A DNA stretch of 64,000 bases from Bacteroidota bacterium. GTDB lineage: Bacteria > Bacteroidota > Bacteroidia > Palsa-965. The notes beneath the pieces were generated by a model. The model was given only the letters and a program-made list of their open reading frames with translations, ran no database searches and was not told the origin of the DNA. Positions 925-58,252 of the stretch are shown piece after piece. The stretch is taken from NCBI GenBank assembly GCA_013289095.1, contig JABDAO010000004.1:1530-65529 (forward strand). The letters run 5' to 3'. A program made the position numbers and the translations under genes. Each line of letters opens with the position of its first letter. Position 1 is the first letter of the stretch.

Positions 925-2025
925 CTATCTGATCAGCATCCACGCATCCTTGTTGGTGGTGCGGGCTTTGGCAAGGGCTTCGATCGCTTGTGCATAAGAG
1001 GCATAGCTGCCGTAACTCACATGGCGTAAAGAGCTGTTGGTTTTAAGGATGAAAGCATCAACGCCTTCGGTACGGAGTTTAGCTACGTAATGATCGGCGT
1101 TTTCGGGGATGGCAAAACAACCGCCTATGATGCTGTATTTTTCTCCCGTTGTTACATTTACGGTTTCGTTCTTTACTTTTTCGGAAACGGTTGTGGATAC
1201 CGCCGTTGATTCAGCCGCGGCTTCCTGCTTTAATTTCACCACAACAGGGGTCGTGTCTTTTTTGGCTGCGGCAAGCGGCTGTGCATTCGAAGTATCGATG
1301 CCCGGAGCTATTGGTTGAATGGGTTGTGAAAGAAGCGGTTTGATAAGGGGTGCCGTGAAACTCTTTTCGGTATAAACGCTTTTTTCTTTGTTTGCAAAAG
1401 GGTTCAGATTGGCATAATTCACGCCTTTCAGCAGATCGGTCCTGAGGGGGATCCAGATACCGGTAAATATAACCGCCGCTGCAAGGGTAAGCACCACATA
1501 CCGTTTTATGTTGAGTTTGCGTTTTACTTCGGCCGGAAGCACATCGCGGTCTTTCGGTTCTTTTTCCAGACGTGTCACAAAACCATCTCTTTTGATGGCT
1601 GGTGATTGAATGGAACAAAGACCAAATGAATCAAGCAGGTAATTAATGGCTGCATCGGGCTGGAACTGGATGTTCTTTTCGATGTCATGAAAAAGAATTC
1701 CGATATTGCTGAGAACGAGTTTCTTGCCTGTATATAGTGTTGAAGTGGAAGAAGCTGCAAATTCATTTATTTTTCCAAGAGCTTCCTGATAAGAAAGTTG
1801 TTGGGTAGCTACCAGATGGTTGGCAAGAAGCCCGTCGTTGTTTTTAAGATTTTTGTTGAAAACAATACTCCGGGAAGGAGGGGTAAATGTGTGTTGGGTA
1901 GGATGCACTTCTGCCGGACGATAATTGGTCACAAATCCCCCAAAACCGGGTATAATTACACACTCATGTGTAAACAATAATTCGCTGATTGACTGATCGA
2001 GATTCATCTCTGCAAATTTAGACAA
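925..2025 (-). CDS. HU-CCDC81-like N-terminal domain plus C-terminal SPOR domain protein
   Basis: 366-aa ORF. N-terminus is LLFTHECVIIPGFGGFVTNYRPAEVHP. There is a central TM helix. The C-terminus YSIIGGCFAIPENADHYVAKLRTEGVDAFIL...SYGSYASYAQA is typical of SPOR. Confidence 0.75.
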   Translation of the reverse strand: MSKFAEMNLDQSISELLFTHECVIIPGFGGFVTNYRPAEVHPTQHTFTPPSRSIVFNKNLKNNDGLLANHLVATQQLSYQEALGKINEFAASSTSTLYTGKKLVLSNIGILFHDIEKNIQFQPDAAINYLLDSFGLCSIQSPAIKRDGFVTRLEKEPKDRDVLPAEVKRKLNIKRYVVLTLAAAVIFTGIWIPLRTDLLKGVNYANLNPFANKEKSVYTEKSFTAPLIKPLLSQPIQPIAPGIDTSNAQPLAAAKKDTTPVVVKLKQEAAAESTAVSTTVSEKVKNETVNVTTGEKYSIIGGCFAIPENADHYVAKLRTEGVDAFILKTNSSLRHVSYGSYASYAQAIEALAKARTTNKDAWMLIR

Positions 2026-2236
2026 AAATGCGTTTCGGGGTTTGATTTCTGGTTCTTTAATCTCACCTGTTCCCGGTTAACGCATCGATCAACTGGGGGG
2101 TGTGATTCGCTGTCTGATTCAGAATCAGGGAGTTCGGCGCTCAGCAGCCGCTTATGGGGGGGCATCCTCGAACAAACCCTCAACTCCCAATAACTTTGTT
2201 TTTCTCGCGTGGAAAAGCTACGTTTGCAAATAGCCT

Positions 2237-3145
2237 ATGTCTCCTTTAAAACAACGCCGTCTTCAGTCTGTGCTCCTGGTCTTTGCGTTGTGCCTGTCGG
2301 GGTTGATCAGTATCAGTTTTGGTGTCCATTCCTCAGTCATCCTACACACCACTGTTCTGCCCGGAGAGGAAAAACCAACCGCAAAAACCATCGTTTCCAA
2401 ACTGATTGCCTCGGCCGATGCATTGCGTGGGGCTGCATTCGACCTGAAAATACAGGAACGGACCGGTTCCAAATTCAGGAATTCGACCTCACATGTAAAG
2501 CTTCAACGGTTTCCTGAAAAGATCTACATTAAAATGGCGGGCCCGGAGCTGCTCTATGCAAAAGGCATGAACAACGACAAAGTGCTTGTAAACCCAGCCG
2601 GGTTTCCGTATGTCGATTTAAACCTCGACATCAACAGCACAACCCTTCATAAAGACCAGCATCATACCATGCATGACGTAGGTTTTGATTTCATGACGGA
2701 GATCATCAAAGACGCCCTGGTCCGTACAGGCCCCAAATTTGAAGAATATTTTAAATACGAGGGACTGGTGACCTGGAACAACCAGAGTTGCTATAAAATT
2801 ACCATCACCGATGCAGCGTACAAGTTTACGAGTTACATTGCAAAAAAAGGCGAATCGCTTATTTCCATTGCCCGGAGAATGAAACTGAGTGAATATAAAA
2901 TAGGCGAACTGAACAAACTGACCGAATACGATGCGTTGCTAAAACCCGGCAAAGTGCTTGTCATCCCTACCTCGTATGCACGCATGACCGAACTGCTGAT
3001 CGACCCGGTCTCCTGGCTTCCGGTGAGCTCTAAGGTATTCGACAATGAAGGCCTTTTCGAAGCATACGAATACCTGAACCTGAAGATAAATCCTGACTTC
3101 GCCGCAAATGAATTTACGAAAGATTTTAAGGGCTACGGTTTTTGA
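2237..3145 (+). CDS. secreted LysM-domain protein (DUF1571-like)
   Basis: 302-aa ORF with an N-terminal signal/TM. LysM-like stretch: YIAKKGESLISIARRMKLSEYKIGELNKLTEYDALLKPGKVLVIP. Confidence 0.65.
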   Translation: MSPLKQRRLQSVLLVFALCLSGLISISFGVHSSVILHTTVLPGEEKPTAKTIVSKLIASADALRGAAFDLKIQERTGSKFRNSTSHVKLQRFPEKIYIKMAGPELLYAKGMNNDKVLVNPAGFPYVDLNLDINSTTLHKDQHHTMHDVGFDFMTEIIKDALVRTGPKFEEYFKYEGLVTWNNQSCYKITITDAAYKFTSYIAKKGESLISIARRMKLSEYKIGELNKLTEYDALLKPGKVLVIPTSYARMTELLIDPVSWLPVSSKVFDNEGLFEAYEYLNLKINPDFAANEFTKDFKGYGF

Positions 3146-3250
3146 TCATTGCTTAAAGTCTGGGGCTCCTTATCCGCTTGTCAGAACCGAAGAAATTGTT
3201 TTTTAAACCTGTGCCGCCTGTTTGCCGTTTAGTGTCATACCGTAAAGAGC

Positions 3251-4261
3251 ATGAAGCGATTTCTAAGTATTTTTTTTATGTTTTTTCCTTCTTTTATCCA
3301 GGTGCCGTTGCGCAGGTTATCTGGACAGAGGATCGGTAAAGGCTCCCGTATCAGGTTTGGCACACTCCTGATCGCACAAGAGGTAAATCTCGGTCAAGGA
3401 GTTTCTCTGGGCCCTTTTTGTTTGATCCGCGCAGAAAAGCTGACGCTGGCCGACTATAGCATGGTCAAAACACTCAGTCTTGTTTCAACCCGCATTGTCT
3501 CCTTCGGAAAGTACGTACACATCGCACCGCTCTCCATCATCCTGAGCGAATTCACCGAAAATTCCAGGATTGAAATCGGCGACCACAGCCGTGTATTTCC
3601 GTTCAGCTGGATGGACACCGGCGAAGGCATCAGCATCGGCAAACAAACAAGCGTGGGCACCCATACACTGATCTATTCGCATGGTACATGGCCCGACTAT
3701 TTAAAGGGTGGGGCGGTGACATTCGGTCCTGTTGTGGTGGGTGATGAGGTGTATCTGGCTACCCGTATTACCATCCTGCCCAATGTGGTGATCGGCAACA
3801 ACACCATCGTAGGCTCAAGCTCGTTTGTGAATAAATCGTTTCCGGATAATGTCATGATCGGCGGAACTCCGGCAAGGATCATCAAAGAAAATTTAGCCAC
3901 CGCATTAGACCCGGCCCAGAAGCTTGCCAAGGCCAACGAAATTCTGTTGGGCTTTAAGAACTACATGGAATTTAAGTATAAGATCGCTGTTCAGGGCCAG
4001 CCCGGCCAGCTCCGCTTTGATACAGGTAAAATAATTATTGATGATGTCTCCACGTTACAGGCAGGCGATTTGTTGTTCCTGGTGAACACGCATCTGACCG
4101 CCGATCAGCTTAAAAATTTCAAAGAGCGAAAGATCTCCGTACTCGATCATCAGGAAAAACAGATCTGGCTTGGCGGAAAAGATCGCGGAGGACATCAGGT
4201 AGTTACAAATTTCATTTCCTTTATACGTCGGTACGGAGTACGTCTTTACATCAACAAATAG
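3251..4261 (+). CDS. hexapeptide-repeat (left-handed beta-helix) acyltransferase
   Basis: 336-aa ORF with repeated [LIV]G-x4 hexapeptide pattern (IGDHSRVFP..., IGKQTSVG..., VGDEVYLA..., IGNNTIVG...) and an extra C-terminal domain. Confidence 0.7.
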   Translation: MKRFLSIFFMFFPSFIQVPLRRLSGQRIGKGSRIRFGTLLIAQEVNLGQGVSLGPFCLIRAEKLTLADYSMVKTLSLVSTRIVSFGKYVHIAPLSIILSEFTENSRIEIGDHSRVFPFSWMDTGEGISIGKQTSVGTHTLIYSHGTWPDYLKGGAVTFGPVVVGDEVYLATRITILPNVVIGNNTIVGSSSFVNKSFPDNVMIGGTPARIIKENLATALDPAQKLAKANEILLGFKNYMEFKYKIAVQGQPGQLRFDTGKIIIDDVSTLQAGDLLFLVNTHLTADQLKNFKERKISVLDHQEKQIWLGGKDRGGHQVVTNFISFIRRYGVRLYINK

Positions 4262-11548: not shown

Positions 11549-11795
11549 TAAACGCATCTTCTTCAAAACAATGAATCGGGCATCTGCTCCCGATGCCAGC
11601 GGTACCTGTCCCGCAAACGCACTCCATGCACGGTAAAATTACTCATCTCAACCATGCTTTGTCTGCATAAGACCGGGCACGGTCTGTCAATATCCCCACT
11701 TCATCGAATACCACAATTTGGTAATAATCTACAAACGCATTGGAGGGTTTTCTTTTTTACTATTGTGTCAGATTAGTCTTTCAGAAATCAGTTTC

Positions 11796-11934
11796 CTATA
11801 AACCAGGATTTTGCATGAGCCGTGTAACAGGCTAATGCAAAATGCGTTAAGCCTTGTGTGTGCCCCGATATCTATCGGGACGGTTATCCCGCTGGGTGCA
11901 TGTGTTGTCAGCCTTTTGAGCAGGGCGGGATAAA
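11796..11934 (-). repeat. core repeat, copy A (shortest copy, lacks the variable insert)
   Basis: The reverse complement reads TTATCCCGCCCTGCTCAAAAGGCTGACAACACATGCACCCAGCGGGATAACCGTCCCGATAGATATCGGGG...GCTTAACGCATTTTGCATTAGCCTGTTACACGGCTCATGCAAAATCCTGGTTTATAG. Confidence 0.8.
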
Positions 11935-14818: not shown

Positions 14819-15040
14819 CCCCACGACTCACCCCCCGGCCCCCTCTCTGCAAGCAGAGAGGGGGAGAAAAAAAGCTGGACAAAACGATGGGTGTTTTGTT
14901 CAAATGAATTCAGTTGAATTCATTTGAATAATTCAACACAAAGGCTCCCCCTCTCTGCTTGCAGAGAGGGGGCCGGCTGCCTTCGCTTGAACGTACTTCC
15001 CTTCGGGCTTCGGCAGCTAAAAGGGGGGTGAGTCGTGGGG
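14819..15040. repeat. ~220-bp palindromic REP-like element
   Basis: The left arm CCCCACGACTCACCCCCCGGCCCCCTCTCTGCAAGCAGAGAGGGGG is mirrored by CCCCCTCTCTGCTTGCAGAGAGGGGGCCGG ... GGGGGGTGAGTCGTGGGG. The centre is the palindrome TTCAAATGAATTCAGTTGAATTCATTTGAA. It sits between convergent 3' ends. Confidence 0.75.
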
Positions 15041-15046
15041 TGGGTG

Positions 15047-15832
15047 CTACAGCACATACGAGTGTGCAATCTGCCCAATCTGTATTTCGCCCCCGCGTAT
15101 GGTGCGCATCACTTTTCCATAGTAAAGTGTTCCCGATATCAGACCGGTAATGGTGACGCGGCAAACATCCGATTTCATGGCCAGTTTAAAATTCACACCG
15201 TCGGTGCTTAGCCAGTAATCATGCCCGGTCTGACGGGGCCCTGCTTTTACGGTTATTTCCAGTTCGCCCGGGTGTTTGCCGGGTTTCATGTTCATGGCGG
15301 GTTTTTCAAACACACCGTCGCTCTTCACCTCCATTCCCGCCAGGTGTATGGTAGCTACTGCTGTCTTAGGGTTCAGGTTCGCCAGATTTTCGACATACAT
15401 AGCCAGCACTTTGAGCGCTGCCATGAGGTCTCTTTTCGCGATTTTCGCAAGATCAGTAGCGGCGCCTATGGCTTTTCGTGAAGCCGTTTCAGCGCTCAGG
15501 ACTGCGTCGATGAGTGCAGAAATGGCTGCCAGGGTTGGGGTAGGGTTTGTAAAGGTGGTGGCATTGGTGGTCATGCACGTCACATAATGTTTCGCATCGC
15601 TCGCCACCTGCAGCGTCGATTTGTTGTGAAGTTTGAGTACTACAAGGGCTCTTTTTACCTTTTCCTGAAGAGCAAGCAGAATAAGTGCGGGAACGATGTT
15701 CTTGGCTTTTTCATGTTTTTTGTTTTTAGCTGTGAATTGATGCTGATGCTTGTACCGGCTGCGGTTGATAGTGCCGGGTAATTTATTGCATTTCAGAGAT
15801 TTGCAGGCTATTTCGCATGCCATCCCGAGCAA
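15047..15832 (-). CDS. hypothetical protein, helical N-terminal half plus fibronectin-III-like C-terminal half
   Basis: 261-aa ORF. MTTNATTFTNPTPTLAAISALIDAV ... LAMYVENLANLNPKTA resembles a Bacteroidota family I know only as hypothetical/FN3. The start is uncertain (15832, 15823 or 15574). Confidence 0.6.
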   Translation of the reverse strand: MLGMACEIACKSLKCNKLPGTINRSRYKHQHQFTAKNKKHEKAKNIVPALILLALQEKVKRALVVLKLHNKSTLQVASDAKHYVTCMTTNATTFTNPTPTLAAISALIDAVLSAETASRKAIGAATDLAKIAKRDLMAALKVLAMYVENLANLNPKTAVATIHLAGMEVKSDGVFEKPAMNMKPGKHPGELEITVKAGPRQTGHDYWLSTDGVNFKLAMKSDVCRVTITGLISGTLYYGKVMRTIRGGEIQIGQIAHSYVL

Positions 15833-15860
15833 AATGACCTGTTGAAAGTGCCTGGAGGGT

Positions 15861-16260
15861 CTTTACGGGTTGCTATCTCCCCTTTACGGGTTGCTATCTC
15901 CCATCTACGGGTTGCTATCTCCCCTTTACGTGTTGCTATCACCTAGATACGGGTTGCTATCCCCCATACACGGGTTGCTATCACCCAGATACGGGTTGCT
16001 ATCACCCCTCTACGGGTTGCTATCACCCAGATACGGATAGCTATCACCCATATACAGATTGCTATCACCCAGATACGGATAGCTATCACCCATATACAGA
16101 TTGCTATCACCCAGATACGGGTAGCTATCACCCAGATACAGTTAGCTTTCACCCATATACAGATTGCTATCATCCAGATGCGGATTGCTATCACCCATAT
16201 ACAGATTGCTATCATCCAGATGCGGGTTGCTGTACCTCATGTAGCTATAGAGATAACCCG
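15861..16260. repeat. tandem array 1, 21-nt period, ~19 units (unit TACGGGTTGCTATCACCCAGA)
   Basis: ACGGG recurs at 15865, 15886 and so on, exactly 21 nt apart. Later units alternate in a 42-nt higher-order pattern. The array starts 29 nt upstream of the 15832 start codon. Confidence 0.9.
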
Positions 16261-16460
16261 CCTGGTAGCCCGTGTGCACAGATTGCCAAGAGGGGCGGTT
16301 CCGCAGTTTCCAGATTCCGGCTTGCCGGGCTTGGTGGAATGCTGTCTTTTTTCAATGAACGATTGTATAGTATGCAAAAAACGCTATTCAATGTTTATAT
16401 TAACTGTAAAAATCGGAAAATATCGTATAGGAGATAAACTATTTAGCTTATTTGTGAATA

Positions 16461-16660
16461 ATTTGGGGTCAACGTCATTTTCCGGGGAGTAACCTGTTTT
16501 ATCACGCATGCTGCATTCGTAGCAGGCTTTCGTGCTCAAAAGGCCAGCAGCTCAACGAACCCGCGGGATAAGCCATCCCGATGACTATCGGGACACACAC
16601 AAAGCTTAACGCACGTTGCATTAGCCTGTTACACGGCTTTTCCAAAATCCCGGTTTATAG
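16461..16660 (+). repeat. module (16461-16498) plus core repeat, copy B (16499-16660)
   Basis: The module ATTTGGGGTCAACGTCATTTTCCGGGGAGTAACCTGTT is shared (inverted) with 35399-35436. The core runs from TTATCACGC to CCCGGTTTATAG and is collinear with copies A, C and E. Confidence 0.8.
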
Positions 16661-16740
16661 CATAGACTTTCGATAAAAAACGTTTGATATTCCTCATTCC
16701 GGTACGAAACGTTCGGAAATCTGTCAGAACAGGAATGGAA

Positions 16741-17340
16741 CCTTAGGGAATGTATCAGGAACATTTAAAGGCATCTTACAACTTTGACAAGGCATCTCGT
16801 AGCCTTTGAAAGACATCTTACAACCTTGCAAAGGCATCACGCAGCCTTGATAAGGAACCAGAGGGAAAGTATCAGGAACCTCGGGGAACATGTCGGGAAG
16901 CTTAGGGAACATGTCGGGAAACTAAGGGAACATGTCGGGAAGCTTAGTAAACATGTCGGGAATCTTGGGGAACATGTCGGGAAGCATAGTAAACATGTCG
17001 GGATCCTCGGGGAACATGTCGGGAAACTAAGGAAACATGTCGGGAAGCTTAGTAAACGTGTCGGGAAGCTTAGCAAACATGTCGGGAAGCTTAGTAAACG
17101 TGTCGGGAAACTTGGGGAACATGTCGGGAAGCTTAGTAAACATGTCGGGAAACTTGGGGAACATGTCGGGAAGCTTAGTAAACATGTCGGGAAGCTTGGG
17201 GAACATGTCGGGAAGCTTAGTAAACGTGTCGGGAAGCTTGGGGAACATGTCGGGAAGCTTAGTAAACATGTCGGGAACCTTGGGGAACATGTCGGGAACC
17301 TTCGGGAATGTGTCGGGAACCCCGGGGGAACGTGTTTCTG
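16741..17340. repeat. tandem array 2, 21-nt period, ~28 units (main unit GGGAACATGTCGGGAAGCTTA; four units of AAGGCATCTTACAACYTTGMN at 16767-16852)
   Basis: TGTCGGG recurs at 16891, 16912 and so on, 21 nt apart. The ORF track shows open frames on both strands across it. Confidence 0.9.
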
Positions 17341-17400
17341 GCTGGACCAACATGCAGCAGTCATTCGATCTCTGCCCCCCAGCTTTTGACATTGACCCAT
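17327..17400 (+). repeat. conserved segment S, copy B
   Basis: GGAACGTGTTTCTGGCTGGACCAACATGCAGCAGTCATTCGATCTCTGCCCCCCAGCTTTTGACATTGACCC is nearly identical to the reverse complement of 34941-35025, apart from a ~9-nt indel. Confidence 0.8.
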
Positions 17401-17586
17401 AATTTGAAGGTGAATTTTGGGGAGAGCAATCTGATTTTCTTGAACGGTTGGGAAAATAAGTGTGTGGGAAAACTGATTTACTGAGGGAAGACGGGTGGGG
17501 GCGGGAGCCAATAACCCCATGATTTAGTACTACCGTGTATCCCTGTTTTTTTGTGACAATCAAAACCCGGGACATCGCGCCCGGCT

Positions 17587-17706
17587 GGAGCGCAACGGTT
17601 GTTTGGATGGTGTTTCTACAGACATTACGCCCCTCCGCGGCGTTAAGATGTAGCCCCAGGGGGCGGAATGTTTGCAGAAAAGAGTAGAATAGAATCGTTG
17701 CGCTCC
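17587..17706. repeat. REP-like long hairpin
   Basis: GGAGCGCAACG (17587-17597) pairs with CGTTGCGCTCC (17696-17706). The inner CTACAGACATTACGCCCC pairs imperfectly with GGGGCGGAATGTTTGCAG. This sequence type commonly yields spurious ORFs in Bacteroidota. Confidence 0.4.
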
Positions 17707-17767
17707 GGCGGAGCGCGAGGTATGGACCTGGGTGGAACAGGAATGCGCCTGTTGTTAATAACACTCC

Positions 17768-18198: not shown

Positions 18199-18292
18199 TT
18201 GAGGGCATCTACTAACCCCGTTTTCTTGCCCTCTCCCTGCCCTCTCCCAAGGAGAGGGCAGGTTTGGATGGGGTTATCAGAGATGCCCTTGA
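18199..18292. repeat. REP hairpin family 1, copy 1
   Basis: TTGAGGGCATCT...CCCTCTCCCAAGGAGAGGGCAGG...AGATGCCCTTGA has nested inverted repeats. It is nearly the same sequence as 44294-44390. Confidence 0.8.
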
Positions 18293-18303
18293 TTTGGTTT
18301 GGA

Positions 18304-31286: not shown

Positions 31287-31535
31287 TAAAAAATGTGTAT
31301 GAATCGTTATACGGTCTGTATACTAATTAGTTTCAGCTGCAAAAGTTGGTAATAACACCTGTCGATTATCAAGGTCTGAGAGATTGATTTCAACAGTGAT
31401 ATGAACACCCAAAACTAAGGAAAAATTCAGTAACTACGAATTACATAAAGGTTCGGAGTTGAGAATCGTTTTCGGGGTCAATAAAGTGGAGGTCAGAGCG
31501 CTTTGAAGACACCTGATTCCTTCTCCGCAACCCCT

Positions 31536-31699
31536 TTATCCCGCATTATTCATTCGGAATCGGCCTTCCCGCTCAAAAGGCTGACAACACATGCACCCAG
31601 CGGGATAACCCGTCTCCCGATGTCTATCGTGACACATACAAGGCTTAACGCACCTTGCATTAGCCTGTAACACGGCAAATGCAAAATTCCGGTTTATAT
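31536..31699 (+). repeat. core repeat, copy C
   Basis: TTATCCCGCATTATTCATTCGGAATCGGCCTTCCCGCTCAAAAGGCTGACAACACATGCACCCAGCGGGATAACCCGTCTCCCGATGTCTATCGTG...TTGCATTAGCCTGTAACACGGCAAATGCAAAATTCCGGTTTATAT. It lies 250 nt upstream of the adhesin start. Confidence 0.8.
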
Positions 31700-31773
31700 C
31701 TTTCACCAATTCCAATTCCTACGGAATAATACGTTTGTATGATAAGCAGAAATTGGTGTAATGGCTTTGCCGG

Positions 31774-31784
31774 CCCCCCCCCCC
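31774..31784. repeat. C11 homopolymer tract
   Basis: CGG followed by 11 C at 31774-31784. This reads as poly-G in the sense of the adhesin gene, ~490 nt upstream of its start. Confidence 0.9.
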
Positions 31785-32651
31785 TTATTTTTAGGGTGCG
31801 GTCTAAGCTTTTGTGATCTTGCAACCCGATCTGCTGGTTTCTGGCTCACCGGAAGTGAAGTGCAAAGATACTTCTTGCCAATTTTGCGAAACCAGTCGTT
31901 AAACCCATTCTGGCACCACACTCCAAGTAGATGCCCTTAAATCAGGATAGGTATAGTAATAGTTCGGGAGAGTCAAATGCTATATGCACAAGGGATCGTT
32001 TGGGAAATAATATACATTTATATATTGCTTTGTGCCAGTACTTTATGAGTAAAAATAAGTCCATAAATGGTCTGATGATACTATAGAATCGCTAATAAAC
32101 TGGTTTTGAAGGGCATTTTGATTGAAATAATTTTACACCCTAAGTTCATCCCAAAAATCGCACCATGAAGGAGCAATCAGAACATAGAAACCAGGGAGAA
32201 GACCTGTTAAAAGCCGGATCATGGCAGGAACACCTGATTTTCTTTGCACTTCTGGGTGAAGAAAGGAACAAGGAGCCTGAGGACATTTTCTCAGATCCAT
32301 ACAGACCAGAATTCCATCAGTTCAGCATTCCCCGGAAAAACTCTTCGGCAATGCTCTTCATACATCTGACCCCTCAGAAAAATGTACGTCCTAGTTAATC
32401 TTGGGGGCATAAGGTGTTTTGAAAATTTCATTAACTGTTCGGGAAAATAGGGGAGAGGAAATGTGCTGTCTATGCGCCTGGGATACCTGAGTTCATGACT
32501 GCCGAAAAGGTCAGTAAATCTTGCCCGACCAGGAATGGGACGGCTATAATTGTGCAGTTGGATACTAGTTGGTTGCTAGTGTGCTTAGTGTGAGGACCTT
32601 TGTCGTTGCTGGATAGAACACAGCAAGACGGGGTCAGTAGATTAGATGGAG

Positions 32652-32690
32652 CGTCACCTTCACGAGAGTGGGGGTGGCGTTTTTTTGTTT
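32652..32690 (+). terminator. possible rho-independent terminator inside the long non-coding stretch
   Basis: CGTCACC (32652-58) pairs with GGTGGCG (32673-79, one G-U pair) and is followed by T7. No convincing upstream gene. Confidence 0.4.
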
Positions 32691-32956
32691 TTAGTAAAGT
32701 TGAGAAAAGAAATCGGGGCCAGATGATGTTGTGTCTTTTCTTCAGAGTGCCTGCCTTCGGGGAATGCCGCGGTTTAATCTCTTGCGGGTCAATTCCCCTC
32801 AGCTCGCTGAGGAGTCTTCGCCCGTGTGTTTGCCTTTTTTAGATACCTCGCAGCTCTGCTGCGAGGAGGTTCATTTATCTGCCTGGAACATACATACATG
32901 CAGCTGAGTGTGGTCAGGCATCCCATCTCAAAAAAAGTACTTACAAAAATCTGCGC

Positions 32957-33212
32957 TTGCAGTGCATCATCAACCTTGACTATACTGGAGAACATGCCTT
33001 ATCTGAAGAATTTCAGGAGATGACGATCCTGGAGATCGACCACGAATTGGGCCGGGCATTGCAGATGCTTAATTTAACGGAGCTGGATCTGCTCGGTATA
33101 CGGTTCTTCGAAATGCGTTCAGTTCAAGCACCAGGTATTATTCCTGGATTGGCGGGGAAGAGCTGTAAGAATGAAGTGGTATAGGATCCTGGAAAACTCA
33201 GAAATGAATTAA
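32957..33212 (+). pseudogene. possible remnant of a sigma-70/ECF region-4 coding sequence
   Basis: ORF 32957-33184 reads ...RALQMLNLTELDLLGIRFFEMRSVQ. A shifted frame continues VRMKWYRILENSEMN*. Together they resemble the region-4 HTH and C-terminal tail, but no region 2 is recognisable upstream. Confidence 0.25.
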
Positions 33213-33335
33213 TCGAAAGAAACAGGTAGAATCATGGAGACTGTTTAACACACTTTGGCAATGTTTTTTTAAACAAACAACAAGAATGTTGTGCTCAGAT
33301 TGAAGATAAACCCTAATTTTCAACACTGATTTCCG

Positions 33336-34880: not shown

Positions 34881-34940
34881 CCTTCAACCCCCAGAATCTG
34901 TGTTTGCTTTTGGCGGTTTGGGTGCAATGAACGCCGAAAA

Positions 34941-35025
34941 ACGGGTCAATGCCAAAAAGCTGGGGGGCAGAGATCGAATGACTGCTGCCTGTTGGTCCAG
35001 CCAGTGGATGCAGAGACACGTTTCC
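34941..35025 (-). repeat. conserved segment S, copy D
   Basis: The reverse complement reads GGAAACGTGTCTCTGCATCCACTGGCTGGACCAACAGGCAGCAGTCATTCGATCTCTGCCCCCCAGCTTTTTGGCATTGACCCGT. It matches 17327-17400. Confidence 0.8.
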
Positions 35026-35057
35026 GTTTTTCAGTTTGTCTTCTGAAGGGGTGATTC

Positions 35058-35180
35058 ACTCTTTATACAGCGCTAAACAGTCTTTATCACATTCTATACA
35101 CACTTTATCACATTCTATTCAGTCTTTATACCAAGCATTACAGTTTCCAGACACTTCTATACACCCTTTATCGGCTGCAG
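35058..35180. repeat. tandem array D, 21-nt period, ~6 units (unit CTTTATCACATTCTATACACA)
   Basis: CTTTAT recurs at 35061, 35082, 35103 and 35124 (21-nt spacing). The unit sequence is unrelated to arrays 1 and 2. Confidence 0.75.
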
Positions 35181-35253
35181 GAGCGCTTTCTTCCATTTGA
35201 AGGCTCATCCCGGGAGCCATCGGGTCTTTAAAATGACTAAGAAAGGGTCTAAA

Positions 35254-35436
35254 CCCGCATTATGCATTAGAAGCAGGCATTCGCGCTCAAAAGGCCAGCA
35301 GCACGACGAACCCGCGGGATGGGTTATCCCGCTGCTCCTGATATCTGGCGGCCCTTTCAGAGCATTAGCCATCTTTAACTGAAAAATGCGGGATAAAACA
35401 GGTTACTCCCCTGAAAAGGATTTTGACCCGTCAAAT
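35254..35436 (+). repeat. core repeat copy D (variant, 35254-35385) plus inverted module (35388-35436)
   Basis: CCCGCATTATGCATTAGAAGCAGGCATTCGCGCTCAAAAGGCCAGCAGCACGACGAACCCGCGGGAT is collinear with copy B. The right end GCGGGATAAAACAGGTTACTCCCCTGAAAAGGATTTTGACCCGTCAAAT is the inverse of the module at 16461-16507. Confidence 0.75.
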
Positions 35437-35664
35437 CGGTTCTTAAAATATAATTTCTTTAATGAATATTAGTTGTCAATAACCGACAGTGGAGATCCTG
35501 GTTGTTAAGTCGGTCCAGATATAGGTGGATGGAAGGTAAACGTATATGGCGGGTGATCGAAAGACAGGAAGAAGAAAACAGCCATTCCGTCTAGTTGAAT
35601 GATAATTATTCCGGCATCAAAACGAGTGAGTGGTCAACCGTGTTAATCACGATACGCCCGAGGC

Positions 35665-36492
35665 CTAAAATATTTTCATCTGTATGCCATTCTGCCGTTT
35701 TAATTCTGTTTTGATTTCAGCAATTTCCATCCTCAGCTCTTTGAGCGTATTGCTTATTCTGTCCTTGCTGATATTGGGTTCGGGAAGCTCCCGGCTCATA
35801 TACGTATTAAATTTCCAGACTTCCAGAATTTCTGAAAGATCAATCTCATAGGGCTGATATTCGGGATTCGTGCTCACAAGCATAAGCGATTTACGCTCCC
35901 CGATCTTGTTATAAACGCTTTTGAAAACAATCCCCTCGTCCTTCGTCACAATGATGTAGGGATAGCCATCCTTGATATGGTTCCAGTTTTCGACATATTC
36001 GGCCACTACCCACGATCCATGTGGCACAGGGGGCATGCTATCGCCGCTGATTTCGAATGAGCGGTATTTACGATTCCTGTCCAGAAAGGGCAGGCTGAAC
36101 GCCTGCAACACTTTGATGTAAGACGGATCAGCAAACCCTGCGGTATAACCGGCTTTTGCTTTGATGGGAACAAGTTCAATATTCTCTTCATTGTCCTGGT
36201 TTACAGTGGTTGCCAGGACACGGATGCGGTTGCCAGTAATATCAATATCATGACCACGCTCTATCTCACTAAGCAGGCTTTCTGAAATCTTCCCCAGTTC
36301 CACCCGGATCAGTTTGTCGAGGGTGATCTTGAAATATTCTGCAAACCGGATCAACGTATCCATGCTGGGCTCGGTAGACCCATTCTCATAACTGCAAAGG
36401 GTGGTTCGCTTTATGCCAAGGGTGGTTGCCACATCATCCTGAGATCGTTTACGGCGTTTGCGAAGTAGGCGGATATTGTCTGAAAAGTACAT
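35665..36492 (-). CDS. XRE-family HTH regulator fused to an S24 (LexA/CI-like) peptidase domain
   Basis: 275-aa ORF. The N-terminal HTH is RSQDDVATTLGIKRTTLCSYENGSTEPSMDTLIRFAEYF. The S24 core is FEISGDSMPP...YPYIIVTKDEGIVFKSV. There is a ~40-aa helical C-terminal tail. Confidence 0.85.
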   Translation of the reverse strand: MYFSDNIRLLRKRRKRSQDDVATTLGIKRTTLCSYENGSTEPSMDTLIRFAEYFKITLDKLIRVELGKISESLLSEIERGHDIDITGNRIRVLATTVNQDNEENIELVPIKAKAGYTAGFADPSYIKVLQAFSLPFLDRNRKYRSFEISGDSMPPVPHGSWVVAEYVENWNHIKDGYPYIIVTKDEGIVFKSVYNKIGERKSLMLVSTNPEYQPYEIDLSEILEVWKFNTYMSRELPEPNISKDRISNTLKELRMEIAEIKTELKRQNGIQMKIF

Positions 36493-44293: not shown

Positions 44294-44390
44294 TTGAGGG
44301 CATCTCTAATAAACCCGTTTTCTTGACCTCTCCCTGCCCCTCTCCCAAGGAGAGAGCATGTTTGGATGGGGTTATTAGAGATGCCCTTGA
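44294..44390. repeat. REP hairpin family 1, copy 2
   Basis: TTGAGGGCATCTCTAATAAACCCGTTTTCTTGACCTCTCCCTGCCCCTCTCCCAAGGAGAGAGCATGTTTGGATGGGGTTATTAGAGATGCCCTTGA. It begins 10 nt upstream of the 44283 start codon. Confidence 0.8.
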
Positions 44391-44598
44391 GTCTGTTCTT
44401 TAATAACTCTGTTTTGGGGTTGTTTATTGTGAGGCCTCACAAAAAAGCGGAAAGATTCAGCGATTTGAACGGTTTTTTTACAAAACAATGATAGTGACTC
44501 GTCCCCGATCGGATAAGTTTCAGGCATCTAATCGATACCAACCCGGTCAGAAATTTATACAGTTTACTACCTTAGCAGCTAATTAATACCTACAGCCC

Positions 44599-45141: not shown

Positions 45142-45253
45142 GGTAGGTTGGTTGAACCCTGCATAATGGTTGTTATACAATTGTATGAACTCCATCCTGC
45201 TCAATCCGGGTAAGATGTTGGTGTTTCCCTATCAGACGGTGGCTGATTGCAAG

Positions 45254-45600
45254 CCAGAAACACCCATTCCGGATCCGGATAGAGGTGATAGAAACCCGGA
45301 AATACCCTTTCCTGACTCGGATGTGAGTGATAGCAACCCGGAAACACCTTTTCCTGACTCGGATGTGAGTGATAGCAACCCGGAAACACCTTTTCCTGAC
45401 TCGGATGTGAGTGATAGCAACCCGGAAATACCCTTTCCGGACTCGGATGTGAGTGATAGCAACCCGGAAACACCTTTTCCTGACTCGGATGTGAGTGATA
45501 GCAACCCGGAAACACCCCTTCCGGATCCGGATGTAGGTAATAGCAACCCGGAAACACCTTTCCCGGATCCGGATATGGCTGATAGCAATCCGGAAATACC
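45254..45600. repeat. tandem array 3, 42-nt (2 x 21) period, ~8 units
   Basis: The unit CGGATGTGAGTGATAGCAACCCGGAAACACCTTTTCCTGACT recurs at 45318, 45360 and so on. It contains GTGATAGCAACCCG, the inverse of the array 1 core CGGGTTGCTATCAC. Confidence 0.9.
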
Positions 45601-45733
45601 ATCAAGTCACTTTCAAACCCATTTACGCTGGAAATGTGATTTATTGAGCTATTGTTTTAATCAGGGGCCATCGAGGCTTCAGACAGACCAGAACCCACGC
45701 TTTTAAGTGTGAGTTAGCTATAGGAGGGTTAAT

Positions 45734-58080: not shown

Positions 58081-58252
58081 CCTATAATCCGGGATTTTGC
58101 ATTAGCCGTTCAACAGGCTAATGCAACGTGCGTTAGGCCTGTGAGGGTCCCGATGGCTCAGATAGACATCGGGAGACGGTTGTCACGCGGGCCAGCAGGA
58201 CTGATGGCTTTTTGAGCGTAAAGACGTGTTTCCGATGCATGAAGCGGGATAA
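58081..58252 (-). repeat. core repeat, copy E
   Basis: The reverse complement reads TTATCCCGCTTCATGCATCGGAAACACGTCTTTACGCTCAAAAAGCC...CCCGATGTCTATCTGAGCCATCGGG...TTGCATTAGCCTGTTGAACGGCTAATGCAAAATCCCGGATTATAGG. It ends ~40 nt upstream of the 58294 start. Confidence 0.8.

Follow-up and report, generated by a model that had tools for sequence, protein, structure and literature searches.

Four loci in a 64-kb stretch of a Bacteroidota metagenome-assembled genome (MAG; contig JABDAO010000004.1, positions 1,530 to 65,529) carry tandem repeat arrays, designated A1, A2 (comprising A2a and A2b), AD and A3. The whole stretch of 64,000 nt is referred to here as the window, and positions are those of the window. 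Open reading frames (ORFs) within ~5 kb of each array were scanned against Pfam and NCBIfam. The neighbours are chromosomal genes of ordinary kinds, among them a SpoIIE phosphatase, a protein with a type IX secretion system (T9SS) tail, an FN3-like protein, a rhodanese, an MBL-rhodanese, TauE, GNAT, PorP/SprF, 3-HAO, SDR and cytochrome c proteins, an ECF sigma factor and an HTH-S24 repressor. The AD and A3 loci sit between convergent genes.

A sliding autocorrelation scan of the entire window, at lags of 4–63, detected tandem periodicities at lags 21, 42 and 63 alone, confined to the four array loci. Tandem Repeats Finder (TRF) recovered the arrays (Table 1), and core motifs remained in perfect register over 17 consecutive units of A1, 20 of A2b and eight 42-nt units of A3. 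The original prediction of arrays stepping by 21 nt was thereby borne out, as was its description of units with a constant part and a few drifting positions and without unique spacers, which agreed with the unit tables. A CRISPR locus was rejected, as the units are contiguous without spacers and no cas domains were found among the scanned neighbours.

Table 1. Arrays, and the elements that contain them, in window positions
Feature	Position	Strand	Basis
Type I conserved edge (TTGAAAGTGCCTGGAGGGTCTTTACGG), A1 copy	15842–15868	+	27-nt pattern match
Array A1: 18 units, TACGGGTTGCTATCACCCAGA type, 42-nt dimers	15864–16241	+	TRF (15864–16231, 21 nt × 17.5, 82% matches, 0% indels), unit table, register over 17 units
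Target-site duplication ATAATTTG, left copy	16458–16465		identical 8-mer next to terminal inverted repeat
End-2 module of type II with ~170-nt structured dispersed repeat (nested hairpins)	16461–16660	+	repeat families D14/D16, I1–I5; no Rfam match
Type II composite, A2 copy, 933 nt; 12-nt terminal inverted repeats GGGTCAACGTCA (16466–16477) and reverse complement of GGGTCAATGTCA (17387–17398)	16466–17398	-	terminal inverted repeat match 11/12, colinear with AD
Array A2a: four AAAGGCATCTTACAACTTTGA-type units, flanked by 18-nt direct repeat GGGAAWGTATCAGGAAC at 16746 and 16863	16767–16850	-	TRF (16767–16855, 21 nt × ~4), unit table, motif positions
Array A2b: ~22 units, GGGAACATGTCGGGAAGCTTA alternating with GTAAACATGTCGGGAAGCTTG (42-nt dimer)	16863–17336	-	TRF (16884–17319, 21 nt × 20.8, 0% indels), register over 20 units
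End-1 module of type II, A2 copy	17338–17398	-	match to 34943–35004
Target-site duplication ATAATTTG, right copy	17399–17406		identical 8-mer next to terminal inverted repeat
Type II composite, AD copy, 487 nt; termini GGGTCAATGCCA and reverse complement of GGGTCAAAATCC (9/12)	34943–35429	+	colinear with A2
Array AD: ~7 degenerate 21-nt units, CTTTATCACATTCTATACACA type	35040–35186	+	TRF (35082–35129, 21 nt × 2.3), lag identity, unit table
Array A3: 8.5 units of 42 nt, half = GTGAGTGATAGCAACCCGGAA (reverse complement of A1 unit)	45239–45600	-	TRF (45244–45600, 42 nt × 8.5, 0% indels), unit comparison
Type I conserved edge, A3 copy (TTGAAAGTGACTTGATGGTATTTCCGG)	45590–45616	-	27-nt pattern match

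Closer analysis of the arrays modified several details of this description. The 21-nt step is real, but the true unit is a 42-nt dimer, as identity at lag 42 exceeded that at lag 21 in every array. The AD array, predicted to step by 21 nt, is present but weak and degenerate, with only 2.3 copies recognized by TRF and a lag-21 identity of 0.57–0.61 over 35019–35183. At A2, where strict register had been proposed throughout, the 20 A2b units conform perfectly, but the register is broken across the A2a block. A motif of the A2b kind at 16746 lies 9 nt off the A2b register, and there is one additional nucleotide in the final A2b unit. The four A2a units may also be described as AAAGGCATC-type, and the motif GGGAA recurs every 10/11 nt along A2b. 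The proposal that the arrays keep the same phase did not hold: the offsets were 12, 17 and 12 mod 21, and there is no common genome-wide phase. An origin from heptamers was also rejected, since identities at lags 7 and 14 (0.14–0.30) were at chance level, with no 7-nt substructure.

Nearest identical units were almost always two units apart, and identity in the second half of A2b was 0.96 at lag 42 compared with 0.82 at lag 21. This spacing, together with the excess of lag-42 over lag-21 identity, shows that the arrays grow and shrink locally by in-register duplication or deletion of 42-nt dimers. The three in-register runs (A1, A2b and A3) together contained at least 70 distinct substitution variants and no indels, which upholds the claim of a strict and non-trivial period.

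The units had been described as unrelated in sequence. This was true of all pairs other than A1 and A3. The A1 unit matched the reverse complement of one half of the A3 42-mer at 17 of 21 positions (p < 0.0005), while A2a, A2b and AD units were mutually unrelated (8–11/21, p > 0.3). The other half of the A3 unit retains a residual 21-nt echo only, with a lag-21 identity of 0.39 against 0.89 at lag 42 (chance 0.25). Both halves of the A3 42-mer end in ACYCGGAW, which is consistent with A3 having arisen as an old dimer of 21-mers.

Two families of composite repeats

The original prediction missed the context of the arrays, which are located inside dispersed elements with conserved ends, terminal inverted repeats (TIRs) and a target-site duplication (TSD). 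The elements fall into two families, for which no flank homology was detected. Type II comprises the A2 and AD loci, which are colinear on both flanks of the array with ~28 and ~7 units inside, respectively. The End-1 modules of A2 (minus strand, from 17398 to 17338) and AD were 95% identical over 62 nt and 98% over 50 nt, and the End-2 modules (16478–16509 vs 35417–35386) were 94% identical over 32 nt. Between these ends, A2 and AD share the 21-nt step only, with no interior match by blastn. A perfect 8-bp TSD adjoins both ends of the A2 copy, an arrangement with a chance probability of ~1.5 × 10−5. At the AD copy no TSD was present, though the GGGTCAA termini were kept. A2, retaining its TSD, would be the younger copy, while the degenerate array and missing TSD of AD are as expected for an older copy. 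On the basis of its TIRs and TSD, type II is demonstrably transposon-like, a probable non-autonomous mobile element resembling a miniature inverted-repeat transposable element (MITE). An autonomous partner would have ends starting GGGTCAAYGYCA and would make 8-bp duplications.

Type I comprises A1, A3 (inverted) and a metagenome contig, L082, and is built on a 21-mer with a GCTATC core. All three share a 27-nt edge, TTGAAAGTG.CT.GA.GGT.TTT.CGG, which runs directly into the array. It was found at A1, on the reverse strand at A3, and at 1277–1303 of L082, with no occurrence expected by chance. No further copies were found in the rest of the window or among 85 fetched loci, and the edge was never seen without an array. 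The right ends of type I showed no homology to each other, and the orientation relative to neighbouring genes was inconsistent among A1, A3 and L082. No TIR or TSD was found for type I, which is dispersed, probably as selfish DNA.

The contig L082, from a related organism in metagenome sample Ga0206851, was identified in a metagenome scan for the shared core and contains 3.6 units near-identical to the edge-proximal units of A1. Here the type I element occupies a non-orthologous place, abutting an ORF for a T9SS type-B-sorted surface protein. This ORF (1270–4242, 990 aa) contains SprB repeats, and its frame extends upstream through the array ('TGCYLPD' three times) to the ATG of the edge. The ORF lacks a signal peptide and starts inside a domain, its first SprB repeat being truncated. 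The boundary between array and gene therefore looks like a truncation or rearrangement junction. This points to displacement of the 5′ portion of a surface-protein gene by the element, or to a chimeric contig at this point.

A further metagenome sequence, recovered on opposite strands as L081 and L084, carries GATAGCAAYCS motifs at 11-nt spacing and in 30-nt units on an unrelated contig. The motif shares its GATAGCAA core with the type I unit, and may reflect either a binding motif that recurs or a coincidence arising from the pattern used in the search.

Searches beyond the window were otherwise negative. The type II flank core GCAGAGATCGAATGACTGCTGC had no other copies in 185,579 species-representative genomes or in JGI metagenome contigs. 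Searches of viral contigs matched neither the A2b unit nor the type I edge, and collections of plasmids and phages yielded no match to the array region as a whole. Public genomes and metagenomes likewise yielded no close relative. When synteny was followed via the MBL-rhodanese gene, the best relative was only 71% identical. Orthologous intergenic regions were therefore not comparable, and the related loci gathered through this gene were used as background only.

These data suggest, with moderate confidence, that dispersed, non-coding composite repeats of two lineage-specific families, BOX-like and probably selfish, contain the arrays as their variable interiors. A type II element would consist of two conserved end modules with TIRs starting GGGTCAA, a tandem array between them and, in the younger copy, an 8-bp TSD. 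A type I element would consist of the conserved 27-nt edge followed by an array on the GCTATC-core 21-mer. Arrays would grow locally by slipped-strand mispairing or unequal recombination, and homogenization of the units would act inside each array, not across arrays. The step would therefore be inherited while the unit sequence drifts or is re-founded in each copy, so that copies share a period and not a sequence. The ORFs would be a by-product of stop-free units with a length that is a multiple of three, and no cellular function would be required of what would be selfish or neutral DNA in unusually long intergenic regions. In a possible neutral variant, an ancient degenerate 21-nt array would have been re-amplified from different founders in each copy, with the ends conserved since only intact ends transpose.

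Of the known designs, BOX is the closest, and the arrays most resemble it rather than genes, iterons or centromeres. BOX elements of Streptococcus pneumoniae have boxA and boxC ends around a variable tandem boxB array, with TIRs and TSDs, and with frames that are open on both strands and take a start codon from an end module; further BOX-type families with other modules occur in S. suis (PMC3049150). The likeness extends to dispersed intergenic composites with conserved ends around a variable array, as seen in type II, and with one edge only in type I. TIRs and a TSD occur in the A2 copy (11/12 and a perfect 8 bp), while the AD copy has 9/12 without TSD and type I has neither. Open frames on the two strands, an end module that supplies the start codon, the presence of several families and clustering with other small repeats are also shared. 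The comparison is nevertheless one of design alone, between different phyla, where no sequence similarity would be expected. Units here are 21/42 nt in perfect register, with arrays reaching 18–22 units. Whereas boxB is homologous among copies, the interior unit of type II differs wholly between copies, though the type I unit is homologous among A1, A3 and L082. Finally, type I is one-edged, without TIR or TSD.

Mycobacterial interspersed repetitive units (MIRU) of Mycobacterium tuberculosis likewise form an intergenic minisatellite family, present at many loci with variable unit number and with small ORFs in phase with neighbouring genes. MIRU units, however, are 40–100 bp, homologous between loci and situated inside operons, without conserved end modules or TIRs, in contrast to the 21/42-nt units, conserved end modules and TIRs found here. 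Few prokaryotes have more than four satellites per Mb, and dispersed non-coding satellite families are reported only in Leptospira interrogans and Methanocella conradii, where repeat lengths are notable for not being multiples of 3 (PMC6749651). Those families share with the present arrays the scattering of related non-coding tandem arrays over a chromosome, a rare arrangement that implies satellite transposition (PMC6749651). They differ in that here the 21/42 step is common to unrelated families and the ends carry TIRs and a TSD. TAACTGA-type or short tandemly repeated repetitive (STRR) heptamer repeats occur in Cyanobacteria, Beggiatoaceae and some Bacteroidetes (PMC4679880). These too are intergenic tandem repeats, and a period that is a multiple of 7 was seen in 6/10 arrays of related loci, but the window arrays have no 7-nt substructure and consist of 21/42-nt units with flanking modules.

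Dispersed BOX-like repeats with an internal minisatellite are rare in bacteria, modular BOX-type repeats being known chiefly from streptococci, and none were described in Bacteroidota in the literature searched. A lineage of this phylum would then display a BOX-type design at high local density, with four arrays in 64 kb, and with the twist that the unit sequence gives way to another from copy to copy and family to family, while the step remains.

Several observations weigh against this interpretation. The ends of type II are 94–98% identical and yet the interiors are unrelated, so either selection for transposition would preserve the ends or the interior would turn over extremely fast. No transposase was found among the scanned window ORFs, mobility rests on a single TSD, and neither TIR nor TSD was found for type I. 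L082 was the only copy found outside the window. As the source is a MAG contig, assembly could also affect unit counts. Other non-coding repeats of the window accumulated ~0.2 indels per substitution, at which ratio ~14 indels would be expected in the three in-register runs where none were seen. Even at a ratio of 0.05 the probability of none is ~0.03. Purely neutral slippage does not predict zero indels, and nor does the neutral re-founding account. Lastly, two families without detectable homology share a 21/42 step.

Unit length and possible roles of the arrays

We scanned 80 related Bacteroidota loci (L001–L080, 1.36 Mb), gathered via the MBL-rhodanese gene, and found 11 periodic stretches, one of which was simple low-complexity sequence. 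Three of the other 10 had periods of 21 or 42 nt, so that coincidence between the two families has p ~ 0.3. The shared step could be a coincidence, or a real and wider bias. Six of the 10 periods were multiples of 7 (7, 7, 7, 21, 21/42 and 42). One array, at L006 1289–1587, consists of TAACCCA heptamers with a 21-nt super-period. Another, at L003 1754–1947, is an intergenic ~21-nt array with indels, just 3′ of the same MBL-rhodanese gene. A third, at L016 16521–16808, is a 42-nt × 4.3 array exactly spanned by an ATG-initiated ORF of 88 aa (MEMRFLNLEMHVLDSDHDILSTETRILN...) with a heptad pattern.

It is conceivable, though we consider it unlikely, that unit length and not unit sequence is the maintained property of the arrays. 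This could be achieved by a length-measuring amplification tied to the conserved ends, or by phase-exact scaffolds for a protein that reads shape or spacing. Maintenance of length would explain the step common to two unrelated families, the near-identical ends around unrelated units and the absence of any surviving indel. The arrays would then represent a class of 'period-defined' bacterial repeats. If the register reflects selection or a measuring mechanism, they would provide a compact system for studying how a repeat period is set and maintained in bacteria.

The specific proposal of phase-dependent protein-binding scaffolds appeared similarly unlikely. Here each 21-bp unit would span two helical turns and present the same face to a DNA-binding or nucleoid protein that polymerizes along the array, with selection on spacing and not on sequence. 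The perfect register, without indels despite at least 70 substitutions, is in keeping with this, as are the lengths of 21 and 42 nt, which correspond to two and four turns. In A2b, the GGGAA spacing is accompanied by four palindromic hexamers per 42 nt (p < 0.001), and some A1 units contain a 10-bp palindrome, GATAGCTATC. The predicted curvature of A1 and A2b was in the top 1.5% of window segments, as calculated with a wedge model for which the internal comparison alone counts. The five unit types, however, had no motif in common, so several proteins or recognition by shape only would be required. Palindromic hexamers were enriched in A2b only, and palindromes were absent from A2a, A3, AD and the edge-proximal A1 units; palindromes were thus rejected as a shared feature. 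Curvature was likewise rejected as a conserved property, as A3 was predicted to be straight and no array was consistently more curved than tandem repeats of shuffled units. The placement of the arrays inside elements with transposon-like ends also argues against scaffolds, as does the position of two loci between convergent genes. Beyond the missing indels, nothing positive was found in their favour.

The original prediction had likened the arrays to iterons or centromere-like binding arrays. This was not borne out, every testable defining feature having failed. In plasmid iterons, such as the 22-bp repeats of R6K, and in ParR-type centromeres, units are few (about 3–7 for iterons), located beside rep or par genes, with one sequence per system. 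The window arrays resemble them in being ~20-bp direct repeats in helical phase (21 nt), but each array has 18–22 units, and the four loci carry no fewer than five unrelated unit sequences, in a chromosomal setting with transposon-like ends. No Rep, ParA/B/R, relaxase or cas domains were identified in the ORFs scanned around the arrays. Neither a partition operon (ParA/ParM with ParB/ParR) nor any other candidate partner gene was found beside them. DnaA-box-like sites were at chance level: 16 would be expected in the window and 15 were present, one of them close to the arrays. There was no AT-rich unwinding tract, the lowest GC content over 100 nt being 0.33, in a single 100-nt segment.

Translation of the arrays into repeat peptides was considered next in probability, and is quite improbable. 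In this case heptad or 14-residue repeats would be produced, e.g. 'SDSNPETPFPDSDV' from A3, 'EHVGKLSKHVGKLG' from A2 or 'MVF(T/P)(D/G)CY...' from the ATG of the type I edge. The multiple-of-three unit length and the lack of frameshifting indels would reflect selection on the frame. The strongest candidate was the plus frame of A3, which has no stops and is most variable at third positions. Its codon-usage log-odds score, from a model trained on 20 long ORFs of the window, was 0.205. This is gene-like, real genes scoring 0.263 ± 0.08 and wrong frames -0.43 ± 0.28, and it was the sole exception, since frames of A1, A2b and AD scored 0.12 or less or contained stops. An ATG is present in the conserved edge of A3 (reverse strand) and of L082, where the array is in frame with the 990-aa ORF. 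Large BOX elements also form transcribed ORFs (PMC3049150), and a 21/42-nt array in a Fulvivirga locus (L023) encodes a genuine NEELQ coiled coil. The latter indicates that a 21-nt step can be coding; the window arrays behaved otherwise.

No frame showed a significant synonymous excess when synonymous and non-synonymous variants were compared in all six frames. The best value (p = 0.07) came from a frame with four stops, and the best clean frame, 'SDSNPETPFPDSDV' of A3, gave p = 0.13. Entropy among units was not concentrated by codon position (p = 0.19–0.43), and, on reading the sequences, changes in the three-copy alignment of the edge followed no codon pattern. The arrays had been predicted to stay open in at least four of six frames. 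This was true of A3, but A1 has one fully open frame and A2b two. In the homologous A1 and A3 arrays, the best-looking frames are on opposite strands: the 'DSNP' frame, open in A3, has five stops in A1, and the 'GCYH' frame, the only fully open one in A1, has no start codon there. The apparent truncation of the L082 ORF weakens its value as evidence for translation.

Homology searches gave a similar result. The peptide of the A1 frame had no match among 5.8 billion proteins. An exhaustive HMMER search of 1.8 billion cluster representatives with the A3 ORF returned compositional matches alone, to acidic, proline-rich repeat proteins unrelated to it. The two flank types, translated in all six frames, had no match even at E ≤ 1. 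Many weak Pfam coiled-coil matches were obtained for the plus-strand ORF of A2, none with a single passing stretch. A multi-core precursor of the ribosomally synthesized and post-translationally modified peptide type ('TGCYHPD'/'GCYHSH') was rejected, given that A1 lacks a start codon and no modifying enzymes are encoded nearby. Taken at the level of sequence, the arrays would appear not to be genes, and nothing supports their translation. The view of their ORFs as pseudo-proteins therefore stands, as by-products of a stop-free unit of 3n length with no synonymous excess, poor codon usage in all frames but one and no homologues. In practice, the long spurious ORFs of the arrays (up to 245 aa) and their weak coiled-coil matches can contaminate MAG annotations.

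A separate open stretch at 17030–17767 (minus strand) begins at the codon right after the rhodanese stop, in the same frame, and contains 142 non-repeat codons before A2b. Its codon-usage score (-0.10) is not gene-like, and it may be a chance or decayed extension.

A role at the RNA level is very improbable. The arrays would be transcribed as untranslated regions of neighbouring genes and offer multiple binding sites to a small RNA or an RNA-binding protein, serving as a platform or decoy, an idea put forward for the TAACTGA heptamers. They adjoin gene ends, and, read on the minus strand, A2 and A1 have the same direction as the rhodanese operon and the FN3-like gene, with no intrinsic terminator convincingly in between. 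Repeats with periods that are multiples of 7 are frequent in Bacteroidota, and the role proposed for heptamers is post-transcriptional (PMC4679880); BOX elements are transcribed and affect neighbouring genes (PMC3049150). However, the 7-nt substructure is absent from the window arrays, the orientation of type I to genes is inconsistent, and a strict unit length is not required by such a role. A structured RNA was rejected, as there was no Rfam match at gathering level in the window (one was at chance level, E = 0.5) and folding was no better than that of shuffled sequences (z-scores of -2.1 to +0.6).

An assembly artefact, whether of the arrays or of their lengths, is highly improbable: repeats of 400–600 nt in a MAG contig are difficult for short reads and L082 may be chimeric at its array/gene junction, but the variant units follow a specific, non-random order between clean, unique flanks, the type I unit and edge were assembled independently in another metagenome, and the TIR/TSD architecture is biologically coherent. 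The arrays are, all the same, likely break points and copy-number traps in assemblies.

Neighbouring genes and other repeats

The gene next to A1 (start region at 15575–15832, minus strand) was predicted to encode an FN3-like protein. An FN3-type β-sandwich was confirmed, with a C-terminal domain modelled at pLDDT 69 and a Foldseek probability of ~1 against many FN3 domains. Its start codon had been placed 29 nt from the array. This distance applies to the maximal ORF, which starts with TTG at 15832. The start used by relatives (MKKP...) corresponds to the ATG at 15714, ~150 nt from A1. The relatives P0002 and P0003 begin MKKP(I/K)MSF..., and the matching ATG AAA AAG CCA of the window at 15714 does not share the frame of the ORF that follows, which implies that a frameshift lies near codon 9, due to a pseudogene, a sequencing error or programmed shifting.

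Repeat-rich intergenic regions of 0.8–2 kb, unusually long for a bacterium, occur at 15715–17767, 31287–33335 and 34881–35664. The second lies upstream of a 2851-aa SprB-repeat gene; it is free of ORFs of 120 aa or more and includes one copy of the dispersed repeat described below, as well as a lone GGGTCAA-type site resembling a type II terminus at 32786. Adjacent to the third, ~240 nt from the AD element, is a gene with HTH_3 and peptidase S24 domains (35665–36492, minus strand), LexA/phage-repressor-like with an RstR-like N-terminus. No other phage or mobile-element genes were recognized near it.

The ~170-nt nested-hairpin repeat that accompanies End-2 is present in at least five copies in the 64 kb: 11795–11924 (minus), 16461–16660 (plus), 31533–31698 (plus), 35247–35436 (two partial, inverted) and 58081–58215 (minus). 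The copies are 65–88% identical, partly inside type II elements, and have no Rfam match. Recurring motifs are TATCCCGC...GCGGGATA, CCCGATG.CTATCGGG and TTGCATTAGCC...GGCT.ATGCAA. This looks like a family of its own, akin either to repetitive extragenic palindromic (REP) or MITE-like elements or to small RNAs.

Other hairpins were also observed. G/C-rich repeats of the CCCTCTCC..GGAGAGGG type are located 3′ of genes at 18208–18299 and 44305–44397 and are 90% identical. A perfect 32-nt inverted repeat, with arms that are themselves hairpins, is formed by 14835–14866 and 14945–14976. Similar G/C-rich hairpins occur at ~1990–2110 of the related locus L003. All of these may be terminator- or REP-like elements of the clade.

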